13,174 nt of DNA from a virus (Duplodnaviria > Heunggongvirae > Uroviricota > Caudoviricetes): positions 1-13,174 of the IMG/VR virus record IMGVR_UViG_2703718823_000001. One strand, written 5' to 3'. Positions 1 through 13,174 of this stretch are shown piece by piece; positions within the stretch are counted from its first letter, which is position 1; each line of letters starts with the position of its first letter. The position numbers were made by a program, and so were the translations under genes. Below the pieces are notes generated by a model. That model did no database searches and was not told where the DNA came from. It was given only the letters and a program-made list of their open reading frames with translations.

Positions 1-527
1 CAAAAATCAAATACGGCCTGTCGGCTGTCGTTCTGGCGCTGATTGCCGCAGGGGCTTCTGCGCCTGAAATCCTCGACCAGTTTCTGGATGAAAAGGAAGG
101 TAACCACACCACGGCATACCGTGATGGTGCGGGTATCTGGACCATCTGCCGTGGAGCCACCCGGGTGGATGGTAAGCCTGTGATTCCTGGCATGAAGCTG
201 TCGAAGGAAAAATGCGACCGGGTTAACGCTATCGAACGGGATAAGGCGCTGGCATGGGTGGCGAAAAACATCAGAGTGCCACTGACCGAACCTCAGAAAG
301 CGGGTATTGCGTCATTCTGCCCGTATAACATTGGCCCCGGTAAGTGTTTCCCGTCGACGTTTTATAAACGAATTAATGCAGGCGATCGCAGAGGAGCGTG
401 TGAAGCGATTCGCTGGTGGATTAAGGACGGTGGCAGAGACTGCCGTATCCGCTCAAATAATTGCTACGGTCAGGTATCTCGTCGCGACCAGGAGAGTGCG
501 CTGGCGTGCTGGGGTATCGACAGATAA
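1..527 (+). CDS. R: Endolysin, T4-lysozyme-like muramidase with apparent SAR (signal-anchor-release) N-terminal domain; 5' end lies upstream of window
   Basis: Frame 0 is open from nt 3 to the TAA at 525-527. It translates to KIKYGLSAVVLALIAAGASAPEILDQF... (Gly/Ala-rich, weakly hydrophobic, SAR-like) followed by E(96-98)-x8-D(123-125)-x5-T(141-143), the spacing of the T4 lysozyme catalytic triad. It sits directly upstream of Rz/Rz1. Confidence 0.85.
   Translation, partial: KIKYGLSAVVLALIAAGASAPEILDQFLDEKEGNHTTAYRDGAGIWTICRGATRVDGKPVIPGMKLSKEKCDRVNAIERDKALAWVAKNIRVPLTEPQKAGIASFCPYNIGPGKCFPSTFYKRINAGDRRGACEAIRWWIKDGGRDCRIRSNNCYGQVSRRDQESALACWGIDR
412..419 (+). other. Chi octamer 5'-GCTGGTGG-3' (RecBCD hotspot sequence), inside the endolysin gene
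   Basis: Exact octamer match read in the sequence. The orientation is the one that is active for RecBCD entering from the right-hand cos end. Confidence 0.55.
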
Positions 528-682
528 GCAGAATATTTTGCTGAAAAGCCTGTAACTGATGACATCAGCAGAGCACTGGCTTTTGCCATTAAGTGGGTGG
601 CGGTCGGTGTTGCTGTGTCCCCGATGCTGTATGGGCTGGCAAAACTGGTCATTGCGTTGAAATCGTGAAGGGAGGATTAAGC

Positions 683-814
683 ATGTCAGACAAACTCATA
701 ACGCTGGCGAAGATCCTCTGTGTAATTGTCGGCATTTCATTTTCACTAATGCTGGTTGCTCTTTTTCTTTCCATGGCCTGGATGATGTTGTCTTCGTCGG
801 GGCTGCTGGGGTGA
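683..814 (+). CDS. Hypothetical small single-pass membrane protein (43 aa) between endolysin and Rz
   Basis: ATG at 683 is preceded by a strong Shine-Dalgarno (AAGGGAGGA, 6-nt spacer). Product [43 protein letters not shown] has one long hydrophobic segment. Its TGA stop (812-814) overlaps the Rz GTG (811-813), suggesting translational coupling. No homolog recognised from memory. Confidence 0.5.
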
Positions 815-1284
815 ACATAAACCGAATGCTTTCCGCGTTTATCGTTATTCTGCTGGTGGCCTGTGGAGCGCTGTGGATGGCAACAGACCATTACCGTGAT
901 AACGCGATTACCTACAAAGCGCAGCGCGATAACAAAGCCAGTGAACTGAAGCTGGCGAACGCAACCATTACTGATATGCAGGTGCGCCAGCGCGATGTTG
1001 CTGCGCTCGATGCAAAATACTCGAGGGAATTAGCCGATGCGAGAGCTGAAAATGAAACTCTTCGCGCTGACGTTGCCGCTGGTCGTAAGCGCCTGCGGAT
1101 CAACGCCACCTGCCACGGTACCGTGCGTGAAGCCCCCACCACCTCCGGCGTGGATAATGCAACCGGCCCCCGACTGGCAGACACCGTTACACGGGATTAT
1201 TTCACCCTCAGAGAGCGGCTGATGACGATGCAGAAGCAACTGGAAGGGGCGCAGGAATATATCCGTACTCAGTGCATTAAGTAG
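811..1284 (+). CDS. Rz: i-spanin (inner-membrane spanin subunit) Rz
   Basis: Product has an N-terminal TM helix followed by ...[14 protein letters not shown]...DVAALDAKY...[28 protein letters not shown], co-linear with lambda Rz as I recall it. Start may be GTG 811 (coupled to upstream ORF) or ATG 826. Confidence 0.9.
852..859 (+). other. Chi octamer 5'-GCTGGTGG-3', inside Rz
   Basis: Exact octamer match, same orientation as the copy at 412-419. Confidence 0.55.
1037..1222 (+). CDS. Rz1: o-spanin (outer-membrane lipoprotein spanin subunit) Rz1, embedded in the +1 frame of Rz
   Basis: Product [20 protein letters not shown]... has a lipobox (VSAC) and the proline-rich [22 protein letters not shown] core, closely matching lambda Rz1 as recalled. 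It lies entirely within Rz in another frame, as in lambda. Confidence 0.85.
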
Positions 1285-1307
1285 TCTTTTTATTATCCGG
1301 AGGATGT

Positions 1308-1532
1308 ATGAAGAAATTACTGGTAACCGTAAAGCCTTTTCAGGGAACAATTCCGTTCCGTATTTTGCAGCGTGGTCGTGTTCTTGTTGAAGGTTCGTTC
1401 AGTGGTAAATGTACGCAATTACACTCCCGGACCTTTCAGGTGAATGCCACGAATGAAGAGCTAACCGTTGAGTGTACGATGAATGCCGCTAAATGCCGCA
1501 TGGTATCCGCTGCATTACAGCCAGTGTGTTGA
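1308..1532 (+). CDS. Hypothetical 74-aa Cys-containing protein in the 'moron' position between spanins and cos
   Basis: ATG at 1308 is preceded by GGAGG (1299-1303). Product MKKLLVTVKPFQGTIPFRILQRGRVLVEGSFSGKCTQLHSRTFQVNATNEELTVECTMNAAKCRMVSAALQPVC has 4 Cys and no obvious signal peptide or TM segment. It occupies the slot where lambda carries bor on the opposite strand. No homolog recognised. Confidence 0.45.
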   Translation: MKKLLVTVKPFQGTIPFRILQRGRVLVEGSFSGKCTQLHSRTFQVNATNEELTVECTMNAAKCRMVSAALQPVC

Positions 1533-1759
1533 GCGACCTTATTATCCATGCGCGGTATTGTCGCCGTATTCCTGCATTAACAGAGACCGCAGCCCGACAG
1601 GGAGACTCCTCTGCGAGAGTGTGCGGGGATAATCAAAAACGATACACACCGGGGTTTACCGCGTTAACGGAGCGCGGCGTTGTCCCCTCATGGTCGCTGG
1701 TCCGGTGCGATGGTGGAAGAAACTGGATTTTGTTGCAACTGACAATCATTATCATTTTG

Positions 1760-1836
1760 CCGGGTCCTTTCCGGCGATCCGGGCCGTTACGGGGCGGCGA
1801 CCTCGCGGGTTTTCGCTATTTATGAAAATTTTCCGG
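1760..1836 (+). other. cos: cosQ/cosN region of a lambda-type cohesive-end site; predicted 12-nt cohesive end GGGCGGCGACCT at 1792-1803
   Basis: 1792-1836 (GGGCGGCGACCTCGCGGGTTTTCGCTATTTATGAAAATTTTCCGG) matches the lambda left end as I recall it. The preceding ...GGGTCCTTTCCGG.GATCCG...GTTACG closely resembles the lambda right end. The small terminase start lies about 195 bp downstream of the predicted end, as in lambda. Confidence 0.8.
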
Positions 1837-1840
1837 GATC

Positions 1841-1948
1841 CATGTCCGGTTTCTCTGCAAGTTAACCATATGAAAAATATAAAAACATGCTTTCCATGAA
1901 CCGGACATGCGCAAAAAATAGACACTAAAACCGGACATGACCGGTTTT
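1841..1948 (+). repeat. cosB-like cluster: four copies of a 12-bp element CATGTCCGGTTT in both orientations, separated by A-tract-rich spacer
   Basis: 1841-1852 CATGTCCGGTTT (forward). 1898-1909 GAACCGGACATG (reverse, 11/12). 1928-1939 AAACCGGACATG (reverse, 12/12). 1937-1948 CATGACCGGTTT (forward, 11/12, overlapping the previous copy to form a near-palindrome). The cluster lies between cosN and the small terminase gene, where lambda has its R3-I1-R2-R1 sites. Confidence 0.6.
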
Positions 1949-1986
1949 GTTGTGATTGTGAGGTGAGAGTTTTTGCGAGGTGAGGA

Positions 1987-2496
1987 GTGGCTACGCAGAC
2001 TGAAGTTGCCAGGCATTTAAGTCTGACCGATCGCCAGCTTCGCAGATTGCAGAAATTGCCGGGTGCCCCGATATCGAATAAGCGAGGGCAACTGGATCTG
2101 GATGCCTGGCGCGATTTTTACATATCGTATCTGAGAAGAAGTAAAAACGATGTGCCTGATGGCGATAGCGAAGACGACTATGAGGAGAAATTGCTTATTG
2201 CCAGATGGGAACTGACAGCAGAACAGGCTGTTACACAGCAGTTAAAAAATGAGGTGTCAAAAGGAAAACTTATTGACACCGGGTTCTGTATTTTTGCCCT
2301 CAGCAAGCTGGCAATGGCGTTATCCAGTACGCTTGATTCCATCCCTTTATCCATGCAGCGACAGTTTCCTGATTTAACACCGCGCCATCTTGACCATCTG
2401 AAAACCCTTATTGCGAAGGGGGCAAATCAGTGTGCGCGGGCGGGGGATAAATTACCGGATTTACTCGATGAATATATCAGAGCAACAACTGAATAA
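1987..2496 (+). CDS. Terminase small subunit (cos-binding DNA packaging protein); Nu1-like C-terminal region, non-lambda N-terminal HTH region
   Basis: GTG start at 1987 with GAGG 6 nt upstream; no in-frame ATG nearby. The C-terminal part (...GFCIFALSKLAMALSSTLDSIPLSMQRQFPDLTPRHLDHLK...LPDLLDEYI) aligns with lambda Nu1 C-terminus as recalled. The N-terminal part (MATQTEVARHLSLTDRQLRRLQKLPGAP...) does not resemble lambda Nu1. Its 3' end overlaps the large terminase start. Confidence 0.85.
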   Translation: MATQTEVARHLSLTDRQLRRLQKLPGAPISNKRGQLDLDAWRDFYISYLRRSKNDVPDGDSEDDYEEKLLIARWELTAEQAVTQQLKNEVSKGKLIDTGFCIFALSKLAMALSSTLDSIPLSMQRQFPDLTPRHLDHLKTLIAKGANQCARAGDKLPDLLDEYIRATTE

Positions 2497-4396
2497 TATG
2501 ATGAGTGCTGTCACAACAGCATTACAGCCCCTGATAAGGGCATTGCCGGTGACGCCAGTTGAATGGGCTGATCAAAATTATTATCTGCCTAAAGAATCTT
2601 CATATGGTGAGGGAGAATGGAAAACGCTGCCGTTCCAGATCGCCATCATGAACAGCATGGGGAATGATCAGATCCGGACTGTTAATCTGATTAAATCTGC
2701 CCGTGTTGGCTATACAAAGATGTTGCTGGGAGTCGCCGGGTATTTTATTGAGCATAAATCCCGAAACAGTCTGCTTTTTCAGCCCACGGATTCTGCCGCT
2801 GAAGATTTTATGAAGTCTCACGTGGAGGCGACGATTCGCGATGTTCCCTGCCTGAAAAAACTTTCTCCCTGGCTGGGACGTAAACATCGTGATAATACCA
2901 TCACGCTGAAACGCTTTTCATCGGGTGTGGGCTTCTGGTGCCTGGGCGGCGCTGCCGCCAAAAACTACCGTGAAAAATCCGTGGACGTGGTCTGCTATGA
3001 CGAACTTTCCTCGTTCGAGCCGGATGTCGAAAAAGAGGGCTCGCCAACCCTGCTGGGGGATAAGCGTATTGAGGGCTCGGTATGGCCAAAATCCATTCGC
3101 GGCTCGACGCCTAAAATAAAAGGCTCCTGCCAGATCGAAAAAGCGGCCAACGAGTCGGCACATTTCATGCGTTTTTATGTGCCCTGCCCGCACTGCGGGG
3201 AGGAGCAGTATCTGAAATTTGGCGATGAGTCCACGCCTTTTGGCCTTAAATGGGAGAAGGACAGTCCCGAAAGTGTTTTCTACCTCTGTGAACATCATGG
3301 CTGCGTGATCCATCAGTCTGAACTGGACCAGAGCAACGGGCGGTGGATCTGTGAAAACACGGGGATGTGGACCCGCGACGGTCTGACGTTTTTCAGCGCC
3401 GCGGATAATGAAATTCCGCCGCCGCGCTCCATCACATTCCATATCTGGACGGCGTACAGTCCGTTCACCACCTGGGTACAGATTGTCTATGACTGGCTGG
3501 ATGCACTGAAAGATCCCAACGGCCTGAAAACCTTTGTGAACACCACGCTGGGCGAGACCTGGGAAGAGGCCGTGGGCGAAAAACTCGATCACCAGGTGCT
3601 GATGGATAAGGTTGTGCGTTACACGGCTGCGGTGCCTTCCCGGGTGGTTTATCTGACGGCGGGCATTGACTCGCAGCGAAACCGTTTTGAGATGTATGTC
3701 TGGGGATGGGCTCCGGGAGAGGAAGCCTTTCTGGTGGATAAAATCATCATTATGGGGCGTCCCGATGAGGAAGAGACGCTGTTACGTGTGGATGTGGCGA
3801 TCAACAAAAAATACCGCCATGCAGACGGAACCGAAATGACCATTTCCCGTGTCTGCTGGGACACCGGGGGGATCGATGGCGAAATTGTCTATCAGAGGTC
3901 AAAAAAACACGGTGTTTTCCGGGTGCTGCCGGTAAAAGGTGCATCTGTTTATGGCAAGCCGGTGATCACCATGCCAAAAACCCGCAATCAGCGGGGCGTG
4001 TATCTGTGCGAAGTGGGGACGGACACCGCAAAAGAAATTCTCTATGCCCGTATGAAAGCCGATCCCACGCCTGCGGATGAAGCCACGTCGTATGCCATCC
4101 GTTTTCCTGATGATCCGGAGATTTTTTCGCAGACAGAGGCGCAGCAACTGGTGGCGGAAGAGCTTGTGGAGAAGTGGGAAAAAGGAAAGATGCGTCTGCT
4201 GTGGGATAACAAAAAGCGGCGTAACGAAGCGCTGGACTGCCTGGTGTATGCCTACGCGGCATTACGTGTGTCCGTGCAACGCTGGCAACTTGATCTGGCT
4301 GTACTGGCAAAATCCCGGGAAGAAGAGACGACCCGGCCAACCCTTAAAGAACTGGCAGCGAAGCTGTCCGGAGGAGTGAATGGTTACAGTCGCTGA
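2468..4396 (+). CDS. A: Terminase large subunit (ATPase/endonuclease), lambda gpA-like
   Basis: Product starts MNISEQQLNN... and is co-linear along its whole length with lambda gpA as recalled (e.g. VEWADQNYYLPKES, KSARVGYTKMLLGV, FWCLGGAAAKNYREKSVDV, CPHCGEEQYLKFGD, YLTAGIDSQ, WDNKKRRNEALDC). The ORF-track start at 2411 is a TTG-initiated upstream extension, judged unlikely. Confidence 0.95.
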   Translation: MNISEQQLNNMMSAVTTALQPLIRALPVTPVEWADQNYYLPKESSYGEGEWKTLPFQIAIMNSMGNDQIRTVNLIKSARVGYTKMLLGVAGYFIEHKSRNSLLFQPTDSAAEDFMKSHVEATIRDVPCLKKLSPWLGRKHRDNTITLKRFSSGVGFWCLGGAAAKNYREKSVDVVCYDELSSFEPDVEKEGSPTLLGDKRIEGSVWPKSIRGSTPKIKGSCQIEKAANESAHFMRFYVPCPHCGEEQYLKFGDESTPFGLKWEKDSPESVFYLCEHHGCVIHQSELDQSNGRWICENTGMWTRDGLTFFSAADNEIPPPRSITFHIWTAYSPFTTWVQIVYDWLDALKDPNGLKTFVNTTLGETWEEAVGEKLDHQVLMDKVVRYTAAVPSRVVYLTAGIDSQRNRFEMYVWGWAPGEEAFLVDKIIIMGRPDEEETLLRVDVAINKKYRHADGTEMTISRVCWDTGGIDGEIVYQRSKKHGVFRVLPVKGASVYGKPVITMPKTRNQRGVYLCEVGTDTAKEILYARMKADPTPADEATSYAIRFPDDPEIFSQTEAQQLVAEELVEKWEKGKMRLLWDNKKRRNEALDCLVYAYAALRVSVQRWQLDLAVLAKSREEETTRPTLKELAAKLSGGVNGYSR

Positions 4397-4586
4397 ACTG
4401 CAGGCGCTGCGTCAGGCGCGCCTTGATTTATTAACCGGTAAACGGGTGGTGTCTGTCCAGAAAGATGGTCGCAGAATTGAATATACGGCGGCCTCTCTGG
4501 ATGAGCTTAACCGGGCGATCAATGATGCTGAGTTGGTACTGGGGACAACCCGCCGTCGCCGTCGTCCGCTGGGAGTGAGGTTATGA
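4380..4586 (+). CDS. W: Head-tail joining / head completion protein, lambda gpW-like (68 aa)
   Basis: Product contains ...LLTGKRVVSVQKDGRRIEYTAASLDEL...RRRRRPLG, same length as and similar to lambda gpW as recalled. GAGGAG lies 3 nt upstream of the ATG. Overlaps the end of A and the start of B (ATGA). Confidence 0.9.
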   Translation: MVTVAELQALRQARLDLLTGKRVVSVQKDGRRIEYTAASLDELNRAINDAELVLGTTRRRRRPLGVRL

Positions 4587-6175
4587 AACGAAAGCCTGTC
4601 CTGATTGATGTGAACGGCGTTCCGCTTCGGGAGAGCCTCAGCTACAACGGGGGCGGTGCAGGATTTGGCGGGCAAATGGCAGAGTGGTTGCCACCCTCGC
4701 AGAGTGCCGATGCGGCCCTGCTGCCCGCGTTGCGTCTGGGGAATGCCCGTGCAGATGATCTGGTGCGCAATAACGGAATAGCGGCCAATGCGGTGGCCCT
4801 GCATAAGGATCACATTGTCGGGCATATGTTTCTGATTAGCTACCGTCCGAACTGGCGCTGGCTGGGGATGCGGGAGACCGCGGCAAAAAGTTTTGTCGAT
4901 GAGGTGGAGGCGGCCTGGTCAGAATACGCAGAAGGGATGTTTGGTGAGATCGACGTGGAAGGGAAACGCACGTTTACGGAATTTATCCGTGAAGGTGTGG
5001 GCGTTCATGCGTTTAACGGCGAAATCTTTGTGCAGCCGGTCTGGGATACGGAGAGCACGCAACTGTTTCGTACGCGTTTTAAAGCCGTGAGTCCGAAACG
5101 GGTGGACACGCCAGGACACGGTATCGGGAACCGTTTTCTGCGGGCCGGGGTGGAGGTTGATCGATATGGCCGTGCCGTTGCGTACCATATCTGTGAGGAT
5201 GATTTTCCTCGCTCCGGGAGTGGACGATGGGAACGGATCCCGCGTGAACTTCCCACCGGGCGTCCGGCCATGCTGCATATTTTCGAGCCGGTGGAGGACG
5301 GGCAGACCCGTGGGGCCAACCAGTTTTACAGCGTCATGGAACGGCTGAAGATGCTCGATTCCCTGCAGGCAACACAGCTTCAGTCGGCCATTGTTAAAGC
5401 CATGTATGCAGCGACGATTGAAAGTGAACTTGATACCGAAAAGGCCTTTGAATATATCGCCGGTGCGCCGCAGGGGCAGAAGGATAATCCGCTTATTAAT
5501 ATTCTGGATAAGTTCTCCACCTGGTATGACACGAATAGCGTGACGCTGGGCGGTGTCAAAATTCCGCACCTTTTCCCTGGTGATGATCTGAAACTTCAGA
5601 CCGCGCAGGATTCAGACAATGGATTTTCGGCGCTTGAACAGGCGCTGCTGCGGTATATCGCTGCCGGTCTTGGCGTTTCCTACGAACAGTTGTCCCGTGA
5701 TTACTCGAAGGTCAGTTACTCAAGTGCCCGCGCCTCCGCCAATGAGTCGTGGCGCTATTTTATGGGGCGGCGAAAATTTATTGCGGCCCGGCTGGCCACG
5801 CAGATGTTTTCCTGCTGGCTGGAAGAGGCACTTCTTCGGGGGATTATTCGTCCGCCACGGGCACGTTTTGATTTTTATCAGGCGCGTTCAGCCTGGTCAC
5901 GGGCTGAGTGGATTGGTGCCGGAAGAATGGCCATTGACGGGCTCAAGGAGGTTCAGGAATCGGTGATGCGTATTGATTCCGGACTGAGCACGTATGAGAA
6001 AGAGCTGGCGCTGATGGGCGAGGATTATCAGGACATTTTCCGCCAGCAGGTCAGGGAATCTGCAGAGCGGGAAAAAGCCGGACTCTCACGTCCGGTGTGG
6101 ATAGCGCAGGCGTATCAGCAGCAGATAGCGGAGAGTCGCAGGCCGGAAGAGGAGACAACACCACGTGAGACGTAA
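4583..6175 (+). CDS. B: Portal protein, lambda gpB-like
   Basis: 530-aa product in the position and of the size of lambda gpB (about 533 aa), between W and C, with start overlapping the W stop. Confidence 0.93.
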   Translation: MKRKPVLIDVNGVPLRESLSYNGGGAGFGGQMAEWLPPSQSADAALLPALRLGNARADDLVRNNGIAANAVALHKDHIVGHMFLISYRPNWRWLGMRETAAKSFVDEVEAAWSEYAEGMFGEIDVEGKRTFTEFIREGVGVHAFNGEIFVQPVWDTESTQLFRTRFKAVSPKRVDTPGHGIGNRFLRAGVEVDRYGRAVAYHICEDDFPRSGSGRWERIPRELPTGRPAMLHIFEPVEDGQTRGANQFYSVMERLKMLDSLQATQLQSAIVKAMYAATIESELDTEKAFEYIAGAPQGQKDNPLINILDKFSTWYDTNSVTLGGVKIPHLFPGDDLKLQTAQDSDNGFSALEQALLRYIAAGLGVSYEQLSRDYSKVSYSSARASANESWRYFMGRRKFIAARLATQMFSCWLEEALLRGIIRPPRARFDFYQARSAWSRAEWIGAGRMAIDGLKEVQESVMRIDSGLSTYEKELALMGEDYQDIFRQQVRESAEREKAGLSRPVWIAQAYQQQIAESRRPEEETTPRET

Positions 6176-7670
6176 TCTTTCACACATTATTGCAGCAGCA
6201 TTCAATGAACCGCTGCTTCTGGAGCCCGCCTATGCGCGGGTTTTCTTTTGCGCGCTCGGGCGCGAGATGGGGGCAGCAAGTCTTTCGGTACCACAACAGC
6301 AGGTACAGCTTGATGCACCCGGAATGCTGGCTGAAACGGACGAGTACATGGCCGGAGGTAAACGACCGGCCCGTGTTTACCGGGTGGTGAACGGTATTGC
6401 TGTACTGCCGGTCACAGGCACGCTGGTGCACCGGCTGGGGGGTATGCGGCCATTTTCCGGAATGACAGGCTATGACGGCATTGTCGCCTGTCTTCAGCAG
6501 GCAATGGCGGATAGCCAGGTGCGGGGTGTACTGCTGGACATTGACAGTCCGGGCGGGCAGGCCGCCGGTGCGTTTGACTGTGCTGACATGATTTACCGCC
6601 TCCGTCAGCAGAAGCCGGTCTGGGCACTGTGCAATGACACGGCCTGTTCTGCAGCCATGCTGCTGGCGTCGGCCTGCTCCCGACGGCTGGTTACCCAGAC
6701 ATCCCGTATCGGCTCCATTGGCGTGATGATGAGCCATGTCAGCTATGCCGGTCATCTGGCGCAGGCCGGTGTGGATATCACGCTGATTTACTCAGGGGCG
6801 CACAAGGTGGATGGCAATCAGTTTGAAGCGTTGCCGGAAGAGGTTCGCCAGGACATGCAGCAGCGGATTGATGCGGCGCGCCGGATGTTTGCCGAAAAAG
6901 TGGCGATGTATACCGGTCTGTCTGTTGATGCAGTCACGGGAACAGAGGCCGCCGTTTTTGAAGGTCAGTCCGGCATTGAGGCCGGGCTGGCGGATGAATT
7001 AATCAATGCGTCGGATGCCATCAGCGTGATGGCTGCGGCGCTGAACACACATGATACAGGAGGCACTATGCCGCAATTAACTGCAACGGAAGCTGCCGCG
7101 CAGGAGAACCAGCGAGTGATGGGGATCCTGGCGTGTCAGGAAGCGAAAGGACGTGAACACCTTGCCACGATGCTGGCAGGACAACAGGGCATGAGCGTTG
7201 AACAGGCCCGGGCGATTCTGACCGCGGCAGCACCACAGCAGCCGGTGGCATCCACGCAGAGTGAAGCCGATCGCATTATGGCGTGTGAAGAAGCTAAAGG
7301 TCGTGAACAACTGGCGGCAACGCTGGCGGCGATGCCGGATATGACGGTGGAAAAAGCCCGCCCGATCCTGGCGGCTTCACCGCAGGCGGATGCCGGACCC
7401 TCACTCCGTGATCAGATTATGGCTCTGGATGAGGCAAAAGGGGCTGAGGCGCAGGCTGAAAAACTGGCGGCGTTTCCCGGAATGACGGTGGAGGCTGCCC
7501 GCGACATTCTGTCCTCATCGCCGGATAAAGCAGAACCGGTTTCTGCATCCACAACCGCCATGTTTGAACGCATCATGGCGAACCATTCACCGGCAGCCGT
7601 GCAGGGTGGCGTGTCACAGACGTCGGCAGACGGTGATGCGGACGTGAAAATGCTCATGGCCATGCCATGA
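6165..7670 (+). CDS. C: Prohead protease / scaffold protein, lambda gpC-like (S49/ClpP-type serine peptidase domain plus C-terminal scaffold region)
   Basis: GTG start overlapping the B stop. N-terminal region (...AFNEPLLLEPAYARVFFCAL..., GVLLDIDSPGGQAAGAFDCADMI, VWALCNDTACSAAMLLASACSRRLVTQTSRIGSIGVMMSH, ITLIYSGAHKVDGN) matches lambda gpC as recalled. The C-terminal third is a repetitive helical region. Confidence 0.9.
   Translation: MRRNLSHIIAAAFNEPLLLEPAYARVFFCALGREMGAASLSVPQQQVQLDAPGMLAETDEYMAGGKRPARVYRVVNGIAVLPVTGTLVHRLGGMRPFSGMTGYDGIVACLQQAMADSQVRGVLLDIDSPGGQAAGAFDCADMIYRLRQQKPVWALCNDTACSAAMLLASACSRRLVTQTSRIGSIGVMMSHVSYAGHLAQAGVDITLIYSGAHKVDGNQFEALPEEVRQDMQQRIDAARRMFAEKVAMYTGLSVDAVTGTEAAVFEGQSGIEAGLADELINASDAISVMAAALNTHDTGGTMPQLTATEAAAQENQRVMGILACQEAKGREHLATMLAGQQGMSVEQARAILTAAAPQQPVASTQSEADRIMACEEAKGREQLAATLAAMPDMTVEKARPILAASPQADAGPSLRDQIMALDEAKGAEAQAEKLAAFPGMTVEAARDILSSSPDKAEPVSASTTAMFERIMANHSPAAVQGGVSQTSADGDADVKMLMAMP
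7068..7670 (+). CDS. Nu3: Nested in-frame scaffold protein (Nu3-like), translated from an internal start within C
   Basis: In-frame ATG at 7068 preceded by GGAGG (7059-7063, 4-nt spacer). It encodes 200 aa sharing the C terminus of C. This mirrors the C/Nu3 nested arrangement of lambda. Confidence 0.6.
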   Translation: MPQLTATEAAAQENQRVMGILACQEAKGREHLATMLAGQQGMSVEQARAILTAAAPQQPVASTQSEADRIMACEEAKGREQLAATLAAMPDMTVEKARPILAASPQADAGPSLRDQIMALDEAKGAEAQAEKLAAFPGMTVEAARDILSSSPDKAEPVSASTTAMFERIMANHSPAAVQGGVSQTSADGDADVKMLMAMP

Positions 7671-7706
7671 AGTCAGTGCTGACCATCAATATGAGGTTTT
7701 AACAAA

Positions 7707-8054
7707 ATGGTGACGAAAACCATCACTGAACAACGTGCGGAAGTACGTATTTTTGCCGGTAATGATCCGGCTCATACCGCCACAGGCAGCAGCGGGATTT
7801 CTCAGGCAACACCGGCTCTGACGCCCCTGATGCTGGATGAAGCCAGCGGGAAACTGGTGGTCTGGGATGGACAGAAAGCCGGTAGTGCGGCTGGCATACT
7901 GGTACTGCCGCTTGAAGGCACAGAGACGGTGCTGACCTATTACAAGTCGGGGACCTTTGCGACGGAGGCAATCCGCTGGCCTGACAGTGTGGATGAACAC
8001 AAAAAGGCAAATGCCTTTGCCGGTACAGCCCTGAGTCACGCGGCTCTGCCGTAA
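7707..8054 (+). CDS. D: Head decoration / capsid stabilisation protein, lambda gpD-like
   Basis: Product contains ...NDPAHTATG...TPLMLD...KLVVWDG...AGILV...YYKSGTF...AFAGTA, co-linear with lambda gpD as recalled. Confidence 0.9.
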   Translation: MVTKTITEQRAEVRIFAGNDPAHTATGSSGISQATPALTPLMLDEASGKLVVWDGQKAGSAAGILVLPLEGTETVLTYYKSGTFATEAIRWPDSVDEHKKANAFAGTALSHAALP

Positions 8055-8061
8055 CACGTTA

Positions 8062-8083
8062 TCAGGCCACCATGGTGGCCTGA
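8062..8083 (+). other. Perfect 22-bp palindrome TCAGGCCACCATGGTGGCCTGA in the D-E intergenic region (potential RNA hairpin or protein-binding site)
   Basis: The sequence is exactly self-complementary. It lies 8 nt after the D stop and 29 nt before the E start. It is not followed by a clear U-tract. Confidence 0.5.
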
Positions 8084-8111
8084 CTGATTTCTGAATGAAA
8101 GGAACTGATTT

Positions 8112-9140
8112 ATGGGATTGTTTACGACCCGCCAGTTACTCGGTTATACCGAACAAAAAGTGAAATTCCGTGCGCTGTTTCTGGAGCTGTTTTTCCGCCG
8201 TACGGTGAATTTCCACACCGAAGAGGTGATGCTGGACAAAATTACCGGAAAAACGCCGGTGGCAGCCTATGTCTCCCCGGTTGTTGAAGGAAAAGTGCTT
8301 CGCCATCGCGGTGGTGAAACCCGCGTGTTACGTCCGGGCTACGTCAAGCCCAAACACGAATTTAATTACCAGCAGGCGGTTGAGCGCCTTCCTGGTGAAG
8401 ATCCGGCTCAGCTGAATGACCCGGCCTACCGTCGTCTGCGTATCATTACCGATAACCTCAAACAGGAAGAGCACGCCATTGTCCAGGTGGAAGAAATGCA
8501 GGCGGTGAATGCCGTGCTGTATGGCAAATACACCATGGAAGGGGATCAGTTTGATACTGTCGAGGTGGATTTCGGGCGCTCTGAAGGAAATAACATTGAG
8601 CAGGCTGACGGTAAAAAATGGTCTGAGCAGGACCGTGATACGTTTGATCCGACGCATGATATTGACCTCTACTGCGATCAGGCCAGCGGCCTTGTGAATA
8701 TCGCCATTATGGACGGTACGGTCTGGCGTCTGCTGAATGGCTTTAAGCTGTTCCGCGAAAAACTGGATACCCGTCGCGGCTCAAATTCACAACTCGAAAC
8801 GGCAGTGAAAGACCTGGGGGCGGTGGTGTCCTTCAAGGGGTATTACGGCGATCTGGCCATTGTGGTGGCGAAAACGTCTTATGTGGCAGAGGACGGTACC
8901 GAAAAACGTTATCTGCCGGAGGGCACACTGGTCCTGGGGAATACGGCAGCAGAGGGCATTCGTTGCTATGGTGCCATTCAGGATGCGCAGGCGTTGTCCG
9001 AAGGTGTGGTGGCCTCTTCCCGTTATCCGAAACACTGGCTGACTGTGGGCGATCCGGCCCGTGAATTCACCATGACGCAGTCCGCTCCGCTGATGGTGCT
9101 GCCGGATCCGGATGAGTTTGTGGTGGTACAGGTGAAATAA
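8112..9140 (+). CDS. E: Major capsid protein, lambda gpE-like
   Basis: 342-aa product (lambda gpE is about 341 aa) with long co-linear matches (PGYVKPKHE, DPAYRRLRII, VEEMQAVNAVLYGKYTMEGD, KLDTRRGSNSQLETAVKDLG, GDPAREFTMTQSAPLMVLPDPDEF). Confidence 0.95.
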   Translation: MGLFTTRQLLGYTEQKVKFRALFLELFFRRTVNFHTEEVMLDKITGKTPVAAYVSPVVEGKVLRHRGGETRVLRPGYVKPKHEFNYQQAVERLPGEDPAQLNDPAYRRLRIITDNLKQEEHAIVQVEEMQAVNAVLYGKYTMEGDQFDTVEVDFGRSEGNNIEQADGKKWSEQDRDTFDPTHDIDLYCDQASGLVNIAIMDGTVWRLLNGFKLFREKLDTRRGSNSQLETAVKDLGAVVSFKGYYGDLAIVVAKTSYVAEDGTEKRYLPEGTLVLGNTAAEGIRCYGAIQDAQALSEGVVASSRYPKHWLTVGDPAREFTMTQSAPLMVLPDPDEFVVVQVK

Positions 9141-9148
9141 TCCGTGAG

Positions 9149-9177
9149 CGGGGGCGAAATGCCCCCGTGTCTTTTTT
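9149..9177 (+). terminator. Candidate rho-independent terminator or attenuator immediately downstream of E
   Basis: GC stem CGGGGGC (9149-9155) and GCCCCCG (9161-9167) with loop GAAAT, followed by TTTTTT (9172-9177). It begins 9 nt after the E stop. Confidence 0.65.
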
Positions 9178-9191
9178 CACAGGAGGCTGAG

Positions 9192-9575
9192 ATGGCAACA
9201 AAAGAAGAAAATCTGAATCGTCTTCGTCAACTGGCTGGCCTGCTGGGGCGCGAGGCGGATATGTCGGGGAGTGCTGCGGATATTGCTCAACGTGTGTCTG
9301 AGTGGGAAGAGGAGCTTGCTGTTTCCCCGGAGGGCATTATGCACTCTGATGAGAGCGGGGCTGATCAAAATCACACAGACGATGGTGAGCAGTTGAACAA
9401 CACGGATGCTCCGGATGATGTTAAAGCCGTCCGGGTACGGAAGTGCCTGCAAGTAATGGGGTATTGCCCGGAGACAGGTCGTCCCGTTGAGCTGGCGTTA
9501 CGGGGTATGCGTGTTCTGGTGCCATCATCACTGGCAACGGCCATGATACAGCACGGAACGGCTGAATATGCGTGA
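9192..9575 (+). CDS. FI: DNA packaging / head assembly accessory protein, lambda gpFI-like
   Basis: ATG at 9192 with AGGAGG 5 nt upstream. Product of about 127 aa with an N-terminal helical part, an acidic low-complexity linker and a C-terminal domain. Assignment rests on position between E and FII and on size, similar to lambda FI. Confidence 0.75.
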   Translation: MATKEENLNRLRQLAGLLGREADMSGSAADIAQRVSEWEEELAVSPEGIMHSDESGADQNHTDDGEQLNNTDAPDDVKAVRVRKCLQVMGYCPETGRPVELALRGMRVLVPSSLATAMIQHGTAEYA

Positions 9576-9921
9576 TTTTCAGAATGCCTTTGATGCTGCC
9601 CTCGCCGGGGTGGACAGTACGATCGTTGAAGTGATGGGGATCCGTGCGCAGTTCACCTCTGGAGCACAACGTGGCGGCGAAGTTCAGGGGGTTTTTGACG
9701 ATCCGGAGTCGCTGGGTTTTGCCGGTGGCGGGGTCCGTATTGAAGGAAGCAGCCCGTCATTATTTGTGCGGACGGATACGGTGCGTGCCGTGCGGCGTGG
9801 TGACACGCTGACCATTAACGGCGAGATGTTCTGGGTGGATCGTGTTTCTCCGGATGACGGGGGAAGCTGTTATCTCTGGCTCAACCGTGGGCAACCACCC
9901 GCTGTTAACCGGCGACGATAA
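9568..9921 (+). CDS. FII: Head-tail connector protein, lambda gpFII-like
   Basis: Product contains ...GVFDDPE...GGGVRIEGSSPSLFVRTD.VR..RRGDTLTI....FWVDRVSPDDGGSCYLWL.RG.PPAVNRRR, nearly co-linear with lambda gpFII as recalled, including the C terminus. Confidence 0.92.
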   Translation: MRDFQNAFDAALAGVDSTIVEVMGIRAQFTSGAQRGGEVQGVFDDPESLGFAGGGVRIEGSSPSLFVRTDTVRAVRRGDTLTINGEMFWVDRVSPDDGGSCYLWLNRGQPPAVNRRR

Positions 9922-9936
9922 ACGCAGGGTGAAATT

Positions 9937-10470
9937 ATGGCGATAAAAGGGCTTGATCAGGCGATTGACAATCTGAGCCGGGTTCGTAAAAACGCCATTC
10001 CGGCGGCTTCAGCAATGGCCATTAACCGCGTGGCCACAACGGCGATTAATCAGTCTTCATCACAGGTTGCCCGGGAGACAAAGGTTCGCCGGAAACTGGT
10101 TAAGGAACGGTCCAGACTGAAACGGGCCACGGTCAGAAATCCGAATGCCAGAATTATCGTTAACCGCGGTGATCTCCCTGTGATTAAGCTGGGGATCAGG
10201 ATGCTGGGGCGTCGCCCGAACAGCATACTTAAAGCCGGTCAGCATCGGTATCAGCGGGCATTTATTCAGCGATTAAAAAATGGTCGCTGGCATGTCATGC
10301 AGCGTGTGGCCGGGAAAAACCGTTACCCCATTGATGTGGTGAAAATCCCGATGGCGGCCCCACTGAAACAGGCATTTGATGAGAATGTTGACCGTATCCG
10401 GCGTGAACGCCTGCCTAAAGAACTGGCATACGCGCTGAAACAACAACTGAGGATTGCGATAAAACGATGA
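9937..10470 (+). CDS. Z: Tail completion protein, lambda gpZ-like
   Basis: 177-aa product in the gpZ position between FII and U. Its stop overlaps the U start (ATGA). Confidence 0.85.
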   Translation: MAIKGLDQAIDNLSRVRKNAIPAASAMAINRVATTAINQSSSQVARETKVRRKLVKERSRLKRATVRNPNARIIVNRGDLPVIKLGIRMLGRRPNSILKAGQHRYQRAFIQRLKNGRWHVMQRVAGKNRYPIDVVKIPMAAPLKQAFDENVDRIRRERLPKELAYALKQQLRIAIKR

Positions 10471-10862
10471 AACACACTGACATTCGTGCCGCAGTGCTGG
10501 ATGCACTCGAGCAGCATGAACACGGGGCGACGCTGTTTGATGGTCGCCCCGTTGTTTTTGACGAAGAGGATTTTCCTGCGATCGCGGTTTATCTGACGGA
10601 TGCAGAGTATACCGGTGAAGAGCTGGATGCAGATACCTGGCGGGCCACACTGCATATTGAGGTGTTTTTACCGGCACAGGTACCTGATTCGGAGCTCGAT
10701 CAGTGGATGGAAAGCCGGATTTATCCGGCGATGACTGCGATCCCTGCACTGGCAGGACTGATTACCACGATGGTTACGCAGGGCTATGAGTATCGTCGTG
10801 ATGACGATATGGCGTTATGGAGCTCTGCGGATCTGACTTATTCCATTACATACGAGATGTGA
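10467..10862 (+). CDS. U: Tail terminator protein, lambda gpU-like
   Basis: 131-aa product, the same length as lambda gpU, in conserved order between Z and V. Confidence 0.88.
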
Positions 10863-10869
10863 GGACGAT

Positions 10870-11622
10870 ATGGCAACACCAAATCCCCTGGAGCCGGTAA
10901 AAGGTGCCGGTACCACTCTGTGGGTTTACAACGGCAAGGGTGATGCTTATGCAAACCCGTTGTCAGACGATGACTGGCAGCGACTGGCTAAGGTGAAGGA
11001 TCTGACGCCGGGCGAGATGACGGCAGAACCCTACGATGATAACTACCTGGATGATGAAGACGCGGACTGGACCGCGACCGGGCAGGGGCAGAAGTCTGCA
11101 GGAGATACCAGTTTTACGCTGGCCTGGAAACCGGGAGAAGATGGTCAGAAAGGGCTTATAGGCTGGTTTGAAAGCGGGGATGTGCGGGCCTATAAAATCC
11201 GTTTTCCGAACGGCACGGTGGATGTGTTTCGTGGCTGGGTCAGCAGTATCGGTAAGGCCGTGACGGCGAAAGAAGTGATCACCCGCACGGTGAAAGTGAC
11301 CAACGTGGGCAAACCTTCCGTGGCGGAAGAACGCAGCAAAATTACGCCGGTCACTGCAATTAAGGTGACACAGACATCCGGTACCGTGGAAAAAGGAAAA
11401 ACAACCACCCTGACGGTTTCTTTTGAGCCGGAAAGTGCAACCGACAAGACGTTCAGAGCGGTTTCCGCCGATCCGTCAACGGGAACCATTGCTGTGAAAG
11501 ATATGGTGATCACTGTGACGGGGATTAAGGCCGGAAAAGTGAGTATCCCCGTGATTTCCGGTAATGGTCAGTTTGCCACGGTAGCTGAAGTCACCGTTAC
11601 TGAAGCGGGCGCTGCAGGGTAA
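10870..11622 (+). CDS. V: Major tail tube protein with C-terminal Ig-like domain, lambda gpV-like
   Basis: Product has long identical stretches to lambda gpV as recalled ([102 protein letters not shown]). The C-terminal roughly 90 aa are Thr/Val-rich and beta-rich (Ig-like). Confidence 0.95.
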
Positions 11623-11635
11623 ACGGAGGTAATAC

Positions 11636-12067
11636 ATGTTTCTGAAAACAGAACAATTTGAATATAACGGTGTATCCGTCATGCTTTCTGAGCTGTCTGC
11701 GCTGCAGCGTATTGAGCATCTTGCCCTCCTGAAACGGCGGGCAGAAGAGGCTGAAGCCAGCGGCAACCTGCAGGTGAGTGTGGAAGATCTTGTCAGAACC
11801 GGCGCGTTTCTGGTGGCGATGTCCCTGTGGCATAACCATCCACAGAAAACGCAGTCACCGTCAATGAATGAGGCCGTGATGAAGATAGAGCAGGAAGTGC
11901 TCACCACCTGGCCTGCCGATGCCATTGCCCGGGCGGAAGAGGTGGTGTTACGTCTGTCCGGGATGAGCGGGGCTGTTCATGCGGATACTGACAGCACCGA
12001 AGTGGCGAAAAATAACGCGCTTACTGATGATGATTTTTCTGCGGGAAAGTTTTCGACGGCGAGCTGA
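11636..12067 (+). CDS. G: Tail assembly chaperone, lambda gpG-like
   Basis: Product MFLKTEQFEYNGVSVMLSELSALQRIEHLALLKRR...GAFLVAMSLWHNHPQKTQSPSMNEAV... is nearly identical in places to lambda gpG as recalled. GGAGG precedes the ATG. Confidence 0.92.
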   Translation: MFLKTEQFEYNGVSVMLSELSALQRIEHLALLKRRAEEAEASGNLQVSVEDLVRTGAFLVAMSLWHNHPQKTQSPSMNEAVMKIEQEVLTTWPADAIARAEEVVLRLSGMSGAVHADTDSTEVAKNNALTDDDFSAGKFSTAS

Positions 12068-12507
12068 ATTTTGCCCTCAGACTGGCGCGTGAGATGGGGA
12101 GGCCTGACTGGCGCGCCATGCTTGCCGGGATGACATCCACCGAATATGCCGACTGGCGACATTTTTACCGCACGCATTATTTTCAGGATACCCAACTGGA
12201 TATGCATTTTTCCGGGCTGATGTACGCCGTACTCAGCCTGTTTTTTTGCGATCCGGATATGCATCCCTCGGATTTCAGTCTGCTGGCTCCCCGGCGAGAG
12301 GAAGCGCAGACGGAGATGCCGGATGAGGAAGACATGCTGATGCAGAAAGCGGCAGGACTTGCCGGAGGCGTCCGGTTCGGTGGGGAGGGAGGGGGCGATA
12401 TTTCACCTTCTGCAGATGTGGTGGATGTCAGCGAGGATGATGTTGCATTAATGATGGCTTCAGCGGGGATTTCCGGAGGTGTGAGATATGTCCCAGCCGG
12501 TTGGTGA
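11636..12507 (+). CDS. GT: Tail assembly chaperone G-T fusion produced by -1 frameshift at 12043-12049
   Basis: The -1 frame after the slippery site reads ...DGELNFALRLAREMGRPDWRAMLAGMTSTEYADWRHFYRTHYF...LMQKAAGLAGGVRFG...GGVRY, co-linear with lambda gpT as recalled. The T frame has no independent start with a ribosome-binding site. Confidence 0.8.
12043..12049 (+). promoter_or_regulatory. Programmed -1 ribosomal frameshift slippery heptamer G GGA AAG for the G-T fusion
   Basis: GGGAAAG lies in the G zero frame as G-GGA-AAG, 18 nt before the G stop. The -1 frame is open from here to 12507 and encodes a gpT-like sequence. Confidence 0.85.
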
Positions 12508-13174
12508 TCTTGTTATTGACCTGAGTCTGGATGCTGTCCGTTTCGATGAGCAGATGAGCCGGGTAAGGCGTCATTTTTCAGGACTGGATACCGACGCCAG
12601 AAAAACCGCCGGTGCCGTTGAGCAGAGTCTGAACCGTCAGGCGCTGGCCGCACAAAAAGCCGGGATTTCCGTCGGGCAGTATAAAGCAGCCATGCGTACC
12701 CTGCCCGCACAGTTTACGGATATCGCCACGCAGCTTGCCGGTGGTCAGAATCCCTGGCTCATCCTGCTGCAACAGGGCGGTCAGGTGAAGGACTCCTTCG
12801 GCGGGATGATCCCCATGTTCAGGGGGCTTGCCGGTGCGATCACCCTGCCGATGGTCGGGGTCACCTCGCTGGCGGTGGCGACAGGTGCGCTGGCGTACGC
12901 CTGGTACCAGGGGGATTCCACGCTTTCAGAATTTAATAAAACGCTGGTCCTTTCCGGCAATCAGGCCGGACTGACTGCCGATCGTATGCTGACGCTCTCA
13001 AGAGCCGGGCAGGCAGCAGGGCTGACGTTTAACCAGGCGAGAGAGTCACTGGCAGCCCTGGTGAATGCCGGTGTGCGTGGTGGTGAACAGTTTGATGCCA
13101 TTAACCAGAGTGTCGCGCGTTTTGCGTCTGCATCCGGTGTGGAGGTGGATAAAGTCGCTGAAGCCTTCGGGAAG
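12489..13174 (+). CDS. H: Tail tape measure protein, lambda gpH-like; 3' end lies beyond window
   Basis: ATG at 12489 with GGAGG upstream, overlapping the end of T. Product MSQPVGDLVIDLSLDAVRFDEQMSRVRRHFSG...GISVGQYKAAMRTLPAQFTDIATQLAGGQNPWLILLQQGGQVKDSFGGMIPMFRGLAGAITLPMVG... closely matches the lambda gpH N-terminus as recalled. Confidence 0.93.

Follow-up and report, generated by a model that had tools for sequence, protein, structure and literature searches.

In phage lambda, the endolysin gene is joined directly to the spanin gene, and in the Qin prophage of Escherichia coli K-12, rrrQ overlaps rzpQ by 4 nt; in both, the gene upstream of the i-spanin, an endolysin, ends on or beside the spanin start. 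Other small hydrophobic membrane proteins are encoded in the same cassette, among them the pinholin/antiholin of the S21 type (S21 68/71; PF04971) and holins. S21 has two transmembrane domains (TMDs) and a charged C-terminal tail. Single hydrophobic helices with a short polar end, in proteins of at most 50 aa, are also found in type I toxins (Hok/Gef, TisB, Ldr, Ibs) and in small membrane regulators of the AcrZ, MgrB and KdpF class; a type I toxin is expressed from a promoter of its own, as an mRNA that is folded and untranslatable, and is accompanied by a cis-antisense RNA. Finally, the Mu gp25 releasin (DUF2730), a small inner-membrane protein encoded near a SAR endolysin, governs the step of lysis that takes place at the membrane without being a holin or a spanin (PMC9239132). 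It is 99 aa long and N-out/C-in, and the model for its action depends on its acidic cytoplasmic domain of 73 aa (PMC9239132).

Here we describe a short open reading frame, ORF-B, in a 13,174-nucleotide stretch of a Caudoviricetes genome (IMG/VR record IMGVR_UViG_2703718823_000001, positions 1 to 13,174; the whole stretch is referred to as the window). ORF-B holds the place that the endolysin gene occupies in lambda and Qin, the upstream partner of the i-spanin being here a predicted 43-aa membrane peptide. It belongs to the same family as phrog_4906, WP_001280932.1 and ECs_1966, and does not differ from them apart from an N-terminal extension in the versions from Shiga-toxin (Stx) phages.

The original prediction had proposed that this peptide is antiholin- or holin-like, affects SAR release, or acts as a toxin-like membrane peptide. 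Compared with S21, it has one TMD and an uncharged tail. Like holins, it has at least one TMD; however, it has no hydrophilic charged C-terminal domain, and no holin family in Pfam, NCBIfam or PHROGs matches it, nor does any releasin or defence family, which argues against the holin-like reading. A PF04971 holin is present upstream in relatives of the window. Compared with Mu gp25, ORF-B is shorter, is without a soluble domain, has the opposite predicted topology and occurs with a soluble endolysin as well; classification as a releasin was rejected, as there was no DUF2730 hit and no cytoplasmic domain of ~70 aa. An i-spanin was also rejected: only ~10 residues follow the TMD, no periplasmic coiled coil is present, and PF03245 is found in the neighbouring gene. 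The type I toxin reading lost its footing in turn. ORF-B has a strong, open Shine-Dalgarno sequence (SD) and lies inside an operon, a crude consensus scan found no promoter-like site on either strand of window positions 1–2100, no Rfam antisense RNA family or other Rfam family matched at E ≤ 1, and no sequence similarity to type I toxins or small membrane regulators was detected. Two further assignments were rejected, that of a moron (no + strand promoter of its own in three contexts and no terminator downstream) and that of an anti-phage defence protein (no PADLOC hit at E ≤ 1). The holin, antiholin and SAR-release ideas are possible only in a loose sense, as membrane action at the time of lysis.

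Layout of the lysis cassette

The window begins inside a lambdoid lysis cassette of E. coli phage type, and the small and large terminase genes, followed by head genes, lie downstream of Rz/Rz1. The features of the cassette are as follows.

3–527, + strand: endolysin R (PF00959, E = 3e-24), cut at the window edge at about codon 4, with its TAA stop at 525–527
528–668, + strand: remnant of ORF-A, a 5'-truncated small TM ORF (alignment to the related locus L001)
668–676, + strand: SD of ORF-B, AAGGGAGGA (anti-SD duplex −11.3 kcal/mol, spacing 6 nt)
683–814, + strand: ORF-B, predicted 43-aa single-pass membrane peptide of the phrog_4906 / WP_001280932.1 / ECs_1966 family
811–1284 (from GTG 811) or from ATG 826, + strand: i-spanin Rz (PF03245, E = 1.4e-48)
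1037–1222, + strand: o-spanin Rz1, embedded in Rz in the +1 frame (PF06085, E = 2.5e-20), with a lipobox-like LVVSAC

The window R is nearly identical to that of 933W and is thus a SAR lysozyme of the 933W type; the 933W R is among the SAR endolysins given in PMC9239132. The full-length R relative of L001 carries the N-terminal stretch YGLSAAVLALIAAGAPAP. From the R stop to the Rz start at GTG 811 there are ~283 nt, in agreement with the ~280 bp originally predicted.

ORF-B encodes a predicted single-pass membrane peptide

ORF-B starts at ATG 683 and comprises 43 sense codons, with its TGA stop at 812–814. Its SD duplex is the strongest among all starts tested in the region, bearing out the short ORF with a strong Shine-Dalgarno that had been predicted. 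A longer, 73-aa version starting at GTG 593 was rejected, as its upstream part is not conserved in other contexts.

The single long hydrophobic helix of the original prediction is also upheld. The best Kyte–Doolittle 19-aa window (residues 11–29) scores 2.89, residues 11–43 include no charged or strongly polar residue, and AlphaFold2 models a single helix over residues 2–38 (mean pLDDT 89). A 10-residue N-terminal tail with a net charge of +1 precedes the TM helix, which spans approximately residues 11–33 and closes at the invariant Trp33. The C-terminal tail of ~10 residues is uncharged; in other variants, the last 10 residues contain at most one Arg. By the positive-inside rule, the topology would be N-in/C-out. 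In protein alignments S19, F20, W33 and L36 are invariant, and K4, G40, L41 and G43 are invariant or nearly so. The codons of the conserved C-terminal GL(L/V)G form a G-run just 5' of the next start.

ORF-B belongs to a catalogued family

Although the original prediction did not recognize ORF-B, the peptide is not new: it is a member of an already catalogued family of hypothetical proteins with no assigned function. It matches phrog_4906 over its full length (E = 2.1e-23, residues 1–43 on profile positions 7–49 of 49), PGAP annotates it in RefSeq as WP_001280932.1, "hypothetical protein", and in prophage Sp10 of E. coli O157:H7 Sakai it is ECs_1966 (XECs191), located between the antirepressor gene (ant) and Rz and associated with a RIBOseq signal (see below). 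At least 1000 contigs encode the exact peptide, labelled in every case "hypothetical" or "uncharacterized". No family match was obtained in Pfam, NCBIfam or PADLOC (the latter without a hit at E ≤ 1), and no RNA family matched the ORF-B region in Rfam at E ≤ 1. DUF3930 was considered and rejected (E = 0.08, below its cut-off). Literature searches on the peptide, on ECs1966 / XECs191 and on Stx-phage lysis cassettes found no functional study of ORF-B.

The family is common in E. coli. Among 5426 complete E. coli genomes, 1750 carry ORF-B DNA, with 4658 occurrences in total and up to 11 copies per genome, the O157 strains of this collection having as many as 11. A tblastn search identified it in 276 phage records, including 933W, Min27, phi24B, P8983 and many Stx1/Stx2 phages, often unannotated. 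Identical or 65–98% identical homologues of 43–48 aa are encoded at the same position in the late operon, and the Stx-phage versions have an N-terminal extension of 5–6 residues (MGWLM or MEWWLM) arising from the overlap with ant. ORF-B is also present in plaque-forming phages (PhiR12 and the PhiR5 series). The K-12 prophage Qin has no homologue. Beyond this group the distribution is narrow: a profile search of 1.84 billion representatives returned 29 matches, all from the same family, and a GTDB scan with one genome per species returned one match, on a 328-bp contig. This contig (L092; NZ_JPLE01000251.1, labelled Xanthomonas pisi DSM 18956) carries the Stx-phage ant–ORF-B junction; E. coli or phage DNA has almost certainly contaminated the assembly.

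Annotation of the family varies between records. The homologue is left uncalled in 933W (L003, 2483–2632), Min27 (L004) and Stx2 converting phage I (AP004402), whereas newer records call it.

ORF-B occurs in four genomic contexts

The related loci fall into four arrangements, given here in the 5' to 3' direction.

Context (a): R – hairpin – ORF-A – ORF-B – Rz; the window type, including the plaque-forming phages PhiR12 and PhiR5_2
Context (b): R – ant (P22_AR_N type) – ORF-B – Rz; 933W, Min27, P8983 and Sakai
Context (c): R – ANT (KilAC) – ORF-C – ORF-B – ORF-A' – ORF-D – Rz; PhiR5_1-type phages
Context (d): two holins – GH108 endolysin – KilAC ANT – ORF-C – ORF-B – lipoprotein gene – HNH – terminase; phiP27-like, L253

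In context (b), the end of ant and the beginning of ORF-B share a TGATG stop/start overlap, and the Rz start follows the ORF-B stop by 7 nt. In context (c), ORF-B is flanked by a 31-aa TM ORF (ORF-C) and by ORF-A' (38 aa), whose GTG start lies 2 nt after the ORF-B stop; ORF-D has 28 aa. In context (d), the GH108 endolysin is soluble, without an N-terminal SAR segment, no PF03245 Rz is called, and the ORF-B homologue is a diverged one (65% amino acid identity). The ANT–ORF-C–ORF-B block appears as an insertion in a phiP27-type cassette, and the P22_AR_N-type and KilAC-type ant families are unrelated to each other.

In all four contexts ORF-B is located in the late operon, 3' of the endolysin gene, and its stop overlaps the next start or precedes it by no more than ~8–12 nt. 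As far as these arrangements tell, ORF-B is tied to neither SAR endolysins, nor Rz, nor ORF-A, the last of which is present in only 14 phage records. The specific link to a SAR endolysin and Rz in the original prediction is therefore weakened by the 65%-identical homologue of context (d), whose cassette has two holins and a soluble GH108 endolysin but no called PF03245 Rz. ORF-B is an accessory gene rather than a core lysis gene, since matches to the R–Rz region (4947 genomes) far exceed the 1750 genomes that carry it, and since lambda and Qin join endolysin and spanin genes directly.

Several features of these loci were noted in passing. In PhiR5_1 (L006, 1403–1849), four small hydrophobic ORFs (C, B, A' and D) form a chain between the KilAC ANT gene and Rz in which each start lies within a few nucleotides of the preceding stop, and ORF-D (MSAELIRAMAFAIRIVAIAVLVWAIRWW) resembles a paralogue of the ORF-A core (ISRALAFAIKWVAVG). 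Tiny TM genes seem to accumulate preferentially in the R–Rz gap. The block in context (d) was found at positions 2211–3322 of L253, a Logan contig from ERR3901405; there, a small lipoprotein ORF (lipobox LLVGC), also present in phiP27 (L32), starts 4–7 nt after ORF-B.

Conservation and translation of ORF-B

The reading frame has exactly 43 codons in 252 of 252 related loci (counted as fetched, without deduplication), which comprise 23 distinct DNA versions. Loss of the frame in related prophages, which had been named at the outset as evidence against a gene, was thus seen in none of them, and the conservation of ORF-B in relatives is confirmed. Even the distant homologues (~65% aa identity) have 43–44 codons and, at up to 36 differences in 126 nt (27%), not a single indel.

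Constraint on the sequence itself is less pronounced. For most diverged pairs, pN/pS (Nei–Gojobori) is 0.27–0.6, similar to the 0.15–0.51 of the periplasmic part of Rz in the same phages. Variable sites are spread over the three codon positions (14/12/18), indicating weak sequence constraint. Between the window and the L255 version there are 17 nonsynonymous and 3 synonymous differences, and pN/pS exceeds 1 in some lineages. In L255 (3001–3132, contig from GCA_024353925.1), ORF-B has 15 amino acid changes and 3 synonymous changes relative to the window (pN/pS ~2), and the flanking ORF-A and R are far less diverged; this pattern, in which the counts are small, could reflect episodic diversifying selection or relaxed constraint.

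We then compared the diverged versions with a simulation of neutral change, in which the observed number of transitions and transversions was placed at random in ORF-B. Simulated sequences were scored jointly for an open frame, zero polar residues at positions 11–33 and the observed hydropathy. All three were retained at frequencies of 0.0056 (L253), 0.023 (933W) and 0.067 (L255). It is the hydrophobic character, rather than the exact sequence, that is conserved in these comparisons, and we infer that the peptide is under selection as a hydrophobic helix.

Alternative frames were evaluated over the same region. Stops or a pN/pS above 1 speak against the +1 and +2 frames and against two of the antisense frames. 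The remaining antisense frame, whose wobble positions coincide with those of ORF-B, is free of stops in all variants and has a similar pN/pS; the choice of the ORF-B frame therefore rests on conservation of its start and stop, and not on pN/pS. An 80-aa antisense ORF (window 649–891, − strand), which overlaps ORF-B and the Rz start, was rejected because its start and ends vary with context; in the L176 type it runs for ~9 codons after its first start.

With each of three unrelated upstream neighbours, ORF-B has an initiation signal: a strong SD where it follows ORF-A, the TGATG overlap with ant in Stx phages, and AAGGGG before the ATG where it follows ORF-C. Ribosome profiling data exist for the Sakai homologue. 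XECs191 of Sp10 is among the RIBOseq-supported small genes of Hucker et al. 2017 (PMC5597208), with 30.0 RPKM of RNA, 12.6 RPKM of footprints, an RCV of 0.43 and a coverage of 0.55 in LB, and was predicted there to reside in the inner membrane with a single TMH (PMC5597208). The signal is low and comes from an uninduced culture of a multicopy strain type, in which read assignment may be ambiguous, and we take it as supportive only. Altogether, ORF-B is very probably a real, translated membrane peptide. For annotation, the consequence is modest: it is a gene that should be called, which older 933W and Min27 records omit.

A crude consensus search found no sigma-70-like promoter on the + strand 5' of ORF-B in three contexts, and no terminator was found 3' of it, the next ORF starting within a few nucleotides. 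The Q-dependent late transcript is therefore most likely the sole source of ORF-B, which would then be co-expressed with the pinholin, the SAR endolysin and the spanins.

Junction between ORF-B and Rz

Two starts are available to Rz in the window. GTG 811 overlaps the ORF-B stop (GTGA, 811–814), whereas ATG 826 leaves a gap of 12 nt; RefSeq/PGAP starts Rz at the ATG equivalent to 826. Public annotations are inconsistent on this point, PGAP using the ATG and one phage record a site further downstream still. The 933W-type Rz begins with ATG AAC CGT (MNR...). The window has ATA (817–819) at the aligned position, with the Asn-Arg codons kept in frame, and the window-type Rz seems to have lost the 933W-type ATG and to start at GTG 811 or ATG 826. 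Lambda Rz begins MSRV, and an i-spanin with N-in topology should have an Arg ahead of its TMD. GTG 811 is favoured over ATG 826 because the Asn-Arg codons are in frame with it and would supply that Arg.

The SD duplexes of both starts are weak (−5.0 kcal/mol for GTG 811 and −6.0 kcal/mol for ATG 826). ORF-B and Rz thus have the attributes of a coupled pair, with a stop and a start that overlap or lie close together and a poor downstream SD. Since no more than 12 nt separate the ORF-B stop from the Rz start, which at either site is within reach of re-initiating ribosomes, and since the Rz SDs are weak, the coupling to Rz that had been predicted is plausible; the GTGA overlap speaks for it, and the PGAP start, 12 nt past the stop, speaks against it. 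From the arrangement of these signals, we consider it fairly likely that translation of ORF-B is coupled to that of Rz.

Other modes of joining the two genes were considered. A programmed −1 frameshift from ORF-B into Rz at G_GGG_UGA is possible in the window but was rejected, as it is not conserved: the −1 frame of the 933W-type junction reads GTG AAA GAG AGA TGA and stops after four codons. Single-sequence folds contain a hairpin that would occlude the Rz start, but it is not significant (z = −1.2 and −1.9), and a 17-sequence consensus fold at this site (−4.4 kcal/mol) has one compensatory pair and no covariation support.

Possible roles of ORF-B

We propose that ORF-B is an accessory inner-membrane peptide of the late operon whose translation feeds ribosomes to Rz, a reading that we place slightly on the probable side. 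Ribosomes recruited by the strong ORF-B SD would finish at its stop and probably re-initiate on the SD-poor Rz. ORF-B would thereby play the coupling role held by R in lambda and Qin, where the endolysin gene overlaps the spanin gene. ORF-B is probably more than a relay, since it is kept in contexts without Rz. Our best guess is that the peptide acts as an accessory modulator by packing against a second membrane helix, belonging either to the lysis machinery or to the host; its conserved small-residue face, G17-x-S19-x-S21, would suit helix packing.

Whether such packing concerns lysis is doubtful, and a role in modulating lysis is put forward tentatively, from sequence and position. Lambda, Qin and most cassettes are without ORF-B, which is therefore dispensable for lysis as such. 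Its position may reflect a permissive site for insertion or recombination rather than a lysis role, since it occurs with a soluble endolysin, without a PF03245 Rz and beside two unrelated ant genes. A stronger version, in which ORF-B represents an unrecognized class of lysis component, a bare 43-residue TM helix with which lambdoid and Shiga-toxin phages would adjust when or how efficiently lysis proceeds, is unlikely. Such a helix would pack against the pinholin or i-spanin TMD or against the SAR domain.

The consequences differ between these readings. ORF-B is present in approximately one-third of complete E. coli genomes, often in multiple copies, and in 933W, Min27, phi24B and Sakai Sp10, and the operon that houses it sets the timing of cell lysis and, with it, of Shiga-toxin release. 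If it tunes lysis, toxin release could change, because Stx release depends on phage lysis; if it modulates the pinholin, SAR endolysin or spanin, the well-studied lysis paradigm would gain an extra component. If it is only a relay, it would show how mosaic phages keep Rz translated after the insertion of accessory genes.

A pure translational relay is the alternative that survives best, although we judge it rather improbable. Here, ORF-B would carry ribosomes, recruited at a strong SD or passed on from ant or ORF-A, to the SD-poor Rz after morons had split the ancestral R–Rz overlap, and the peptide would be inert, partitioning harmlessly into the membrane. Such a relay would account for the weak Rz SDs beside a strong ORF-B SD, for the tight juxtaposition of stop and next start in every context, for an amino acid constraint so weak that pN/pS is near or above 1 in some lineages, and for the G-run that the C-terminal GL(L/V)G codons place just before the next start. 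However, a relay needs no set composition, and three diverged lineages keep the polar-free core, Trp33 and 43–44 codons better than simulated drift. ORF-B is also kept where no Rz follows it (L253) and where other small ORFs separate it from Rz (L006).

It is quite unlikely that ORF-B is instead part of an ant accessory module, or an independent membrane anchor, partner or exclusion factor, and has no part in lysis. The association with ant is close in several phages: ORF-B directly follows a P22_AR_N-type ant in 933W, Min27, P8983 and Sakai Sp10, with the TGATG overlap, and follows a KilAC-type ANT and ORF-C in PhiR5_1 and in the phiP27-like L253, and the three genes appear as an inserted block in a phiP27-type cassette. 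Yet the window type and many of its relatives have ORF-B without any ant, and the lack of relationship between the two ant families argues that an insertion site is shared and not a function.

We give equally little credence to a moron expressed in the lysogen and acting in superinfection exclusion, in host fitness or as a membrane poison resembling a type I toxin. The size and hydrophobicity of ORF-B resemble those of such peptides, a terminator-like hairpin lies between R and ORF-A in relatives, and transcripts and footprints were found in uninduced Sakai cultures; however, this low uninduced signal would fit spontaneous induction. Moreover, no coding-strand promoter-like site lies upstream in three contexts, no terminator follows ORF-B, with the next gene beginning within a few bases, and neither an Rfam antisense or toxin–antitoxin RNA nor a PADLOC hit was found. 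That ORF-B is no gene at all but a chance ORF in a T-rich, recombination-prone spacer, as its shortness, the antisense frame open in all variants, the neutral appearance of some lineages and the narrowness of the family (29 matches among 1.84 billion representatives) might suggest, is most improbable given a start, stop and length conserved without indels at up to 27% nucleotide divergence, the simulation P values against drift, initiation signals in three unrelated contexts, the ribosome footprints reported for the Sakai homologue, and a rival antisense ORF without conserved start or ends.

A 198-bp deletion and other features of the window

Compared with all relatives found, the window has a 198-bp (66-codon) deletion between R and ORF-B, with its junction near 541–549. 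In the alignment to L001, the segment lost comprises the terminator-like hairpin together with ~22 codons from the 5' end of ORF-A. No other fetched locus has this variant, and it is absent from the best matches among the 5426 complete E. coli genomes; close relatives that have the extra 198 bp include E. coli SCU-106 and phage PhiR12_1. Intact ORF-A has 60 aa with a C-terminal hydrophobic segment and matches phrog_1115. Its remnant in the window (528–668) is without a start codon and, because the length of the deletion is a multiple of three, is in frame with R after the TAA. In relatives, the segment missing here is bordered by short CTGAAA repeats.

Directly after Rz, a 74-aa ORF (window 1308–1532, + strand) is preceded by a good SD, GGAGGA (−9.5 kcal/mol), at the site where lambda has bor. 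It matches phrog_2571 (function unknown) at positions 100–172 of 291 only and may be a fragment of a larger gene. Further downstream, positions 1926–1949 hold a hairpin resembling a bidirectional terminator, AAAACCGGACATGACCGGTTTT, inside the presumed cos region and just 5' of the small terminase gene (1987).
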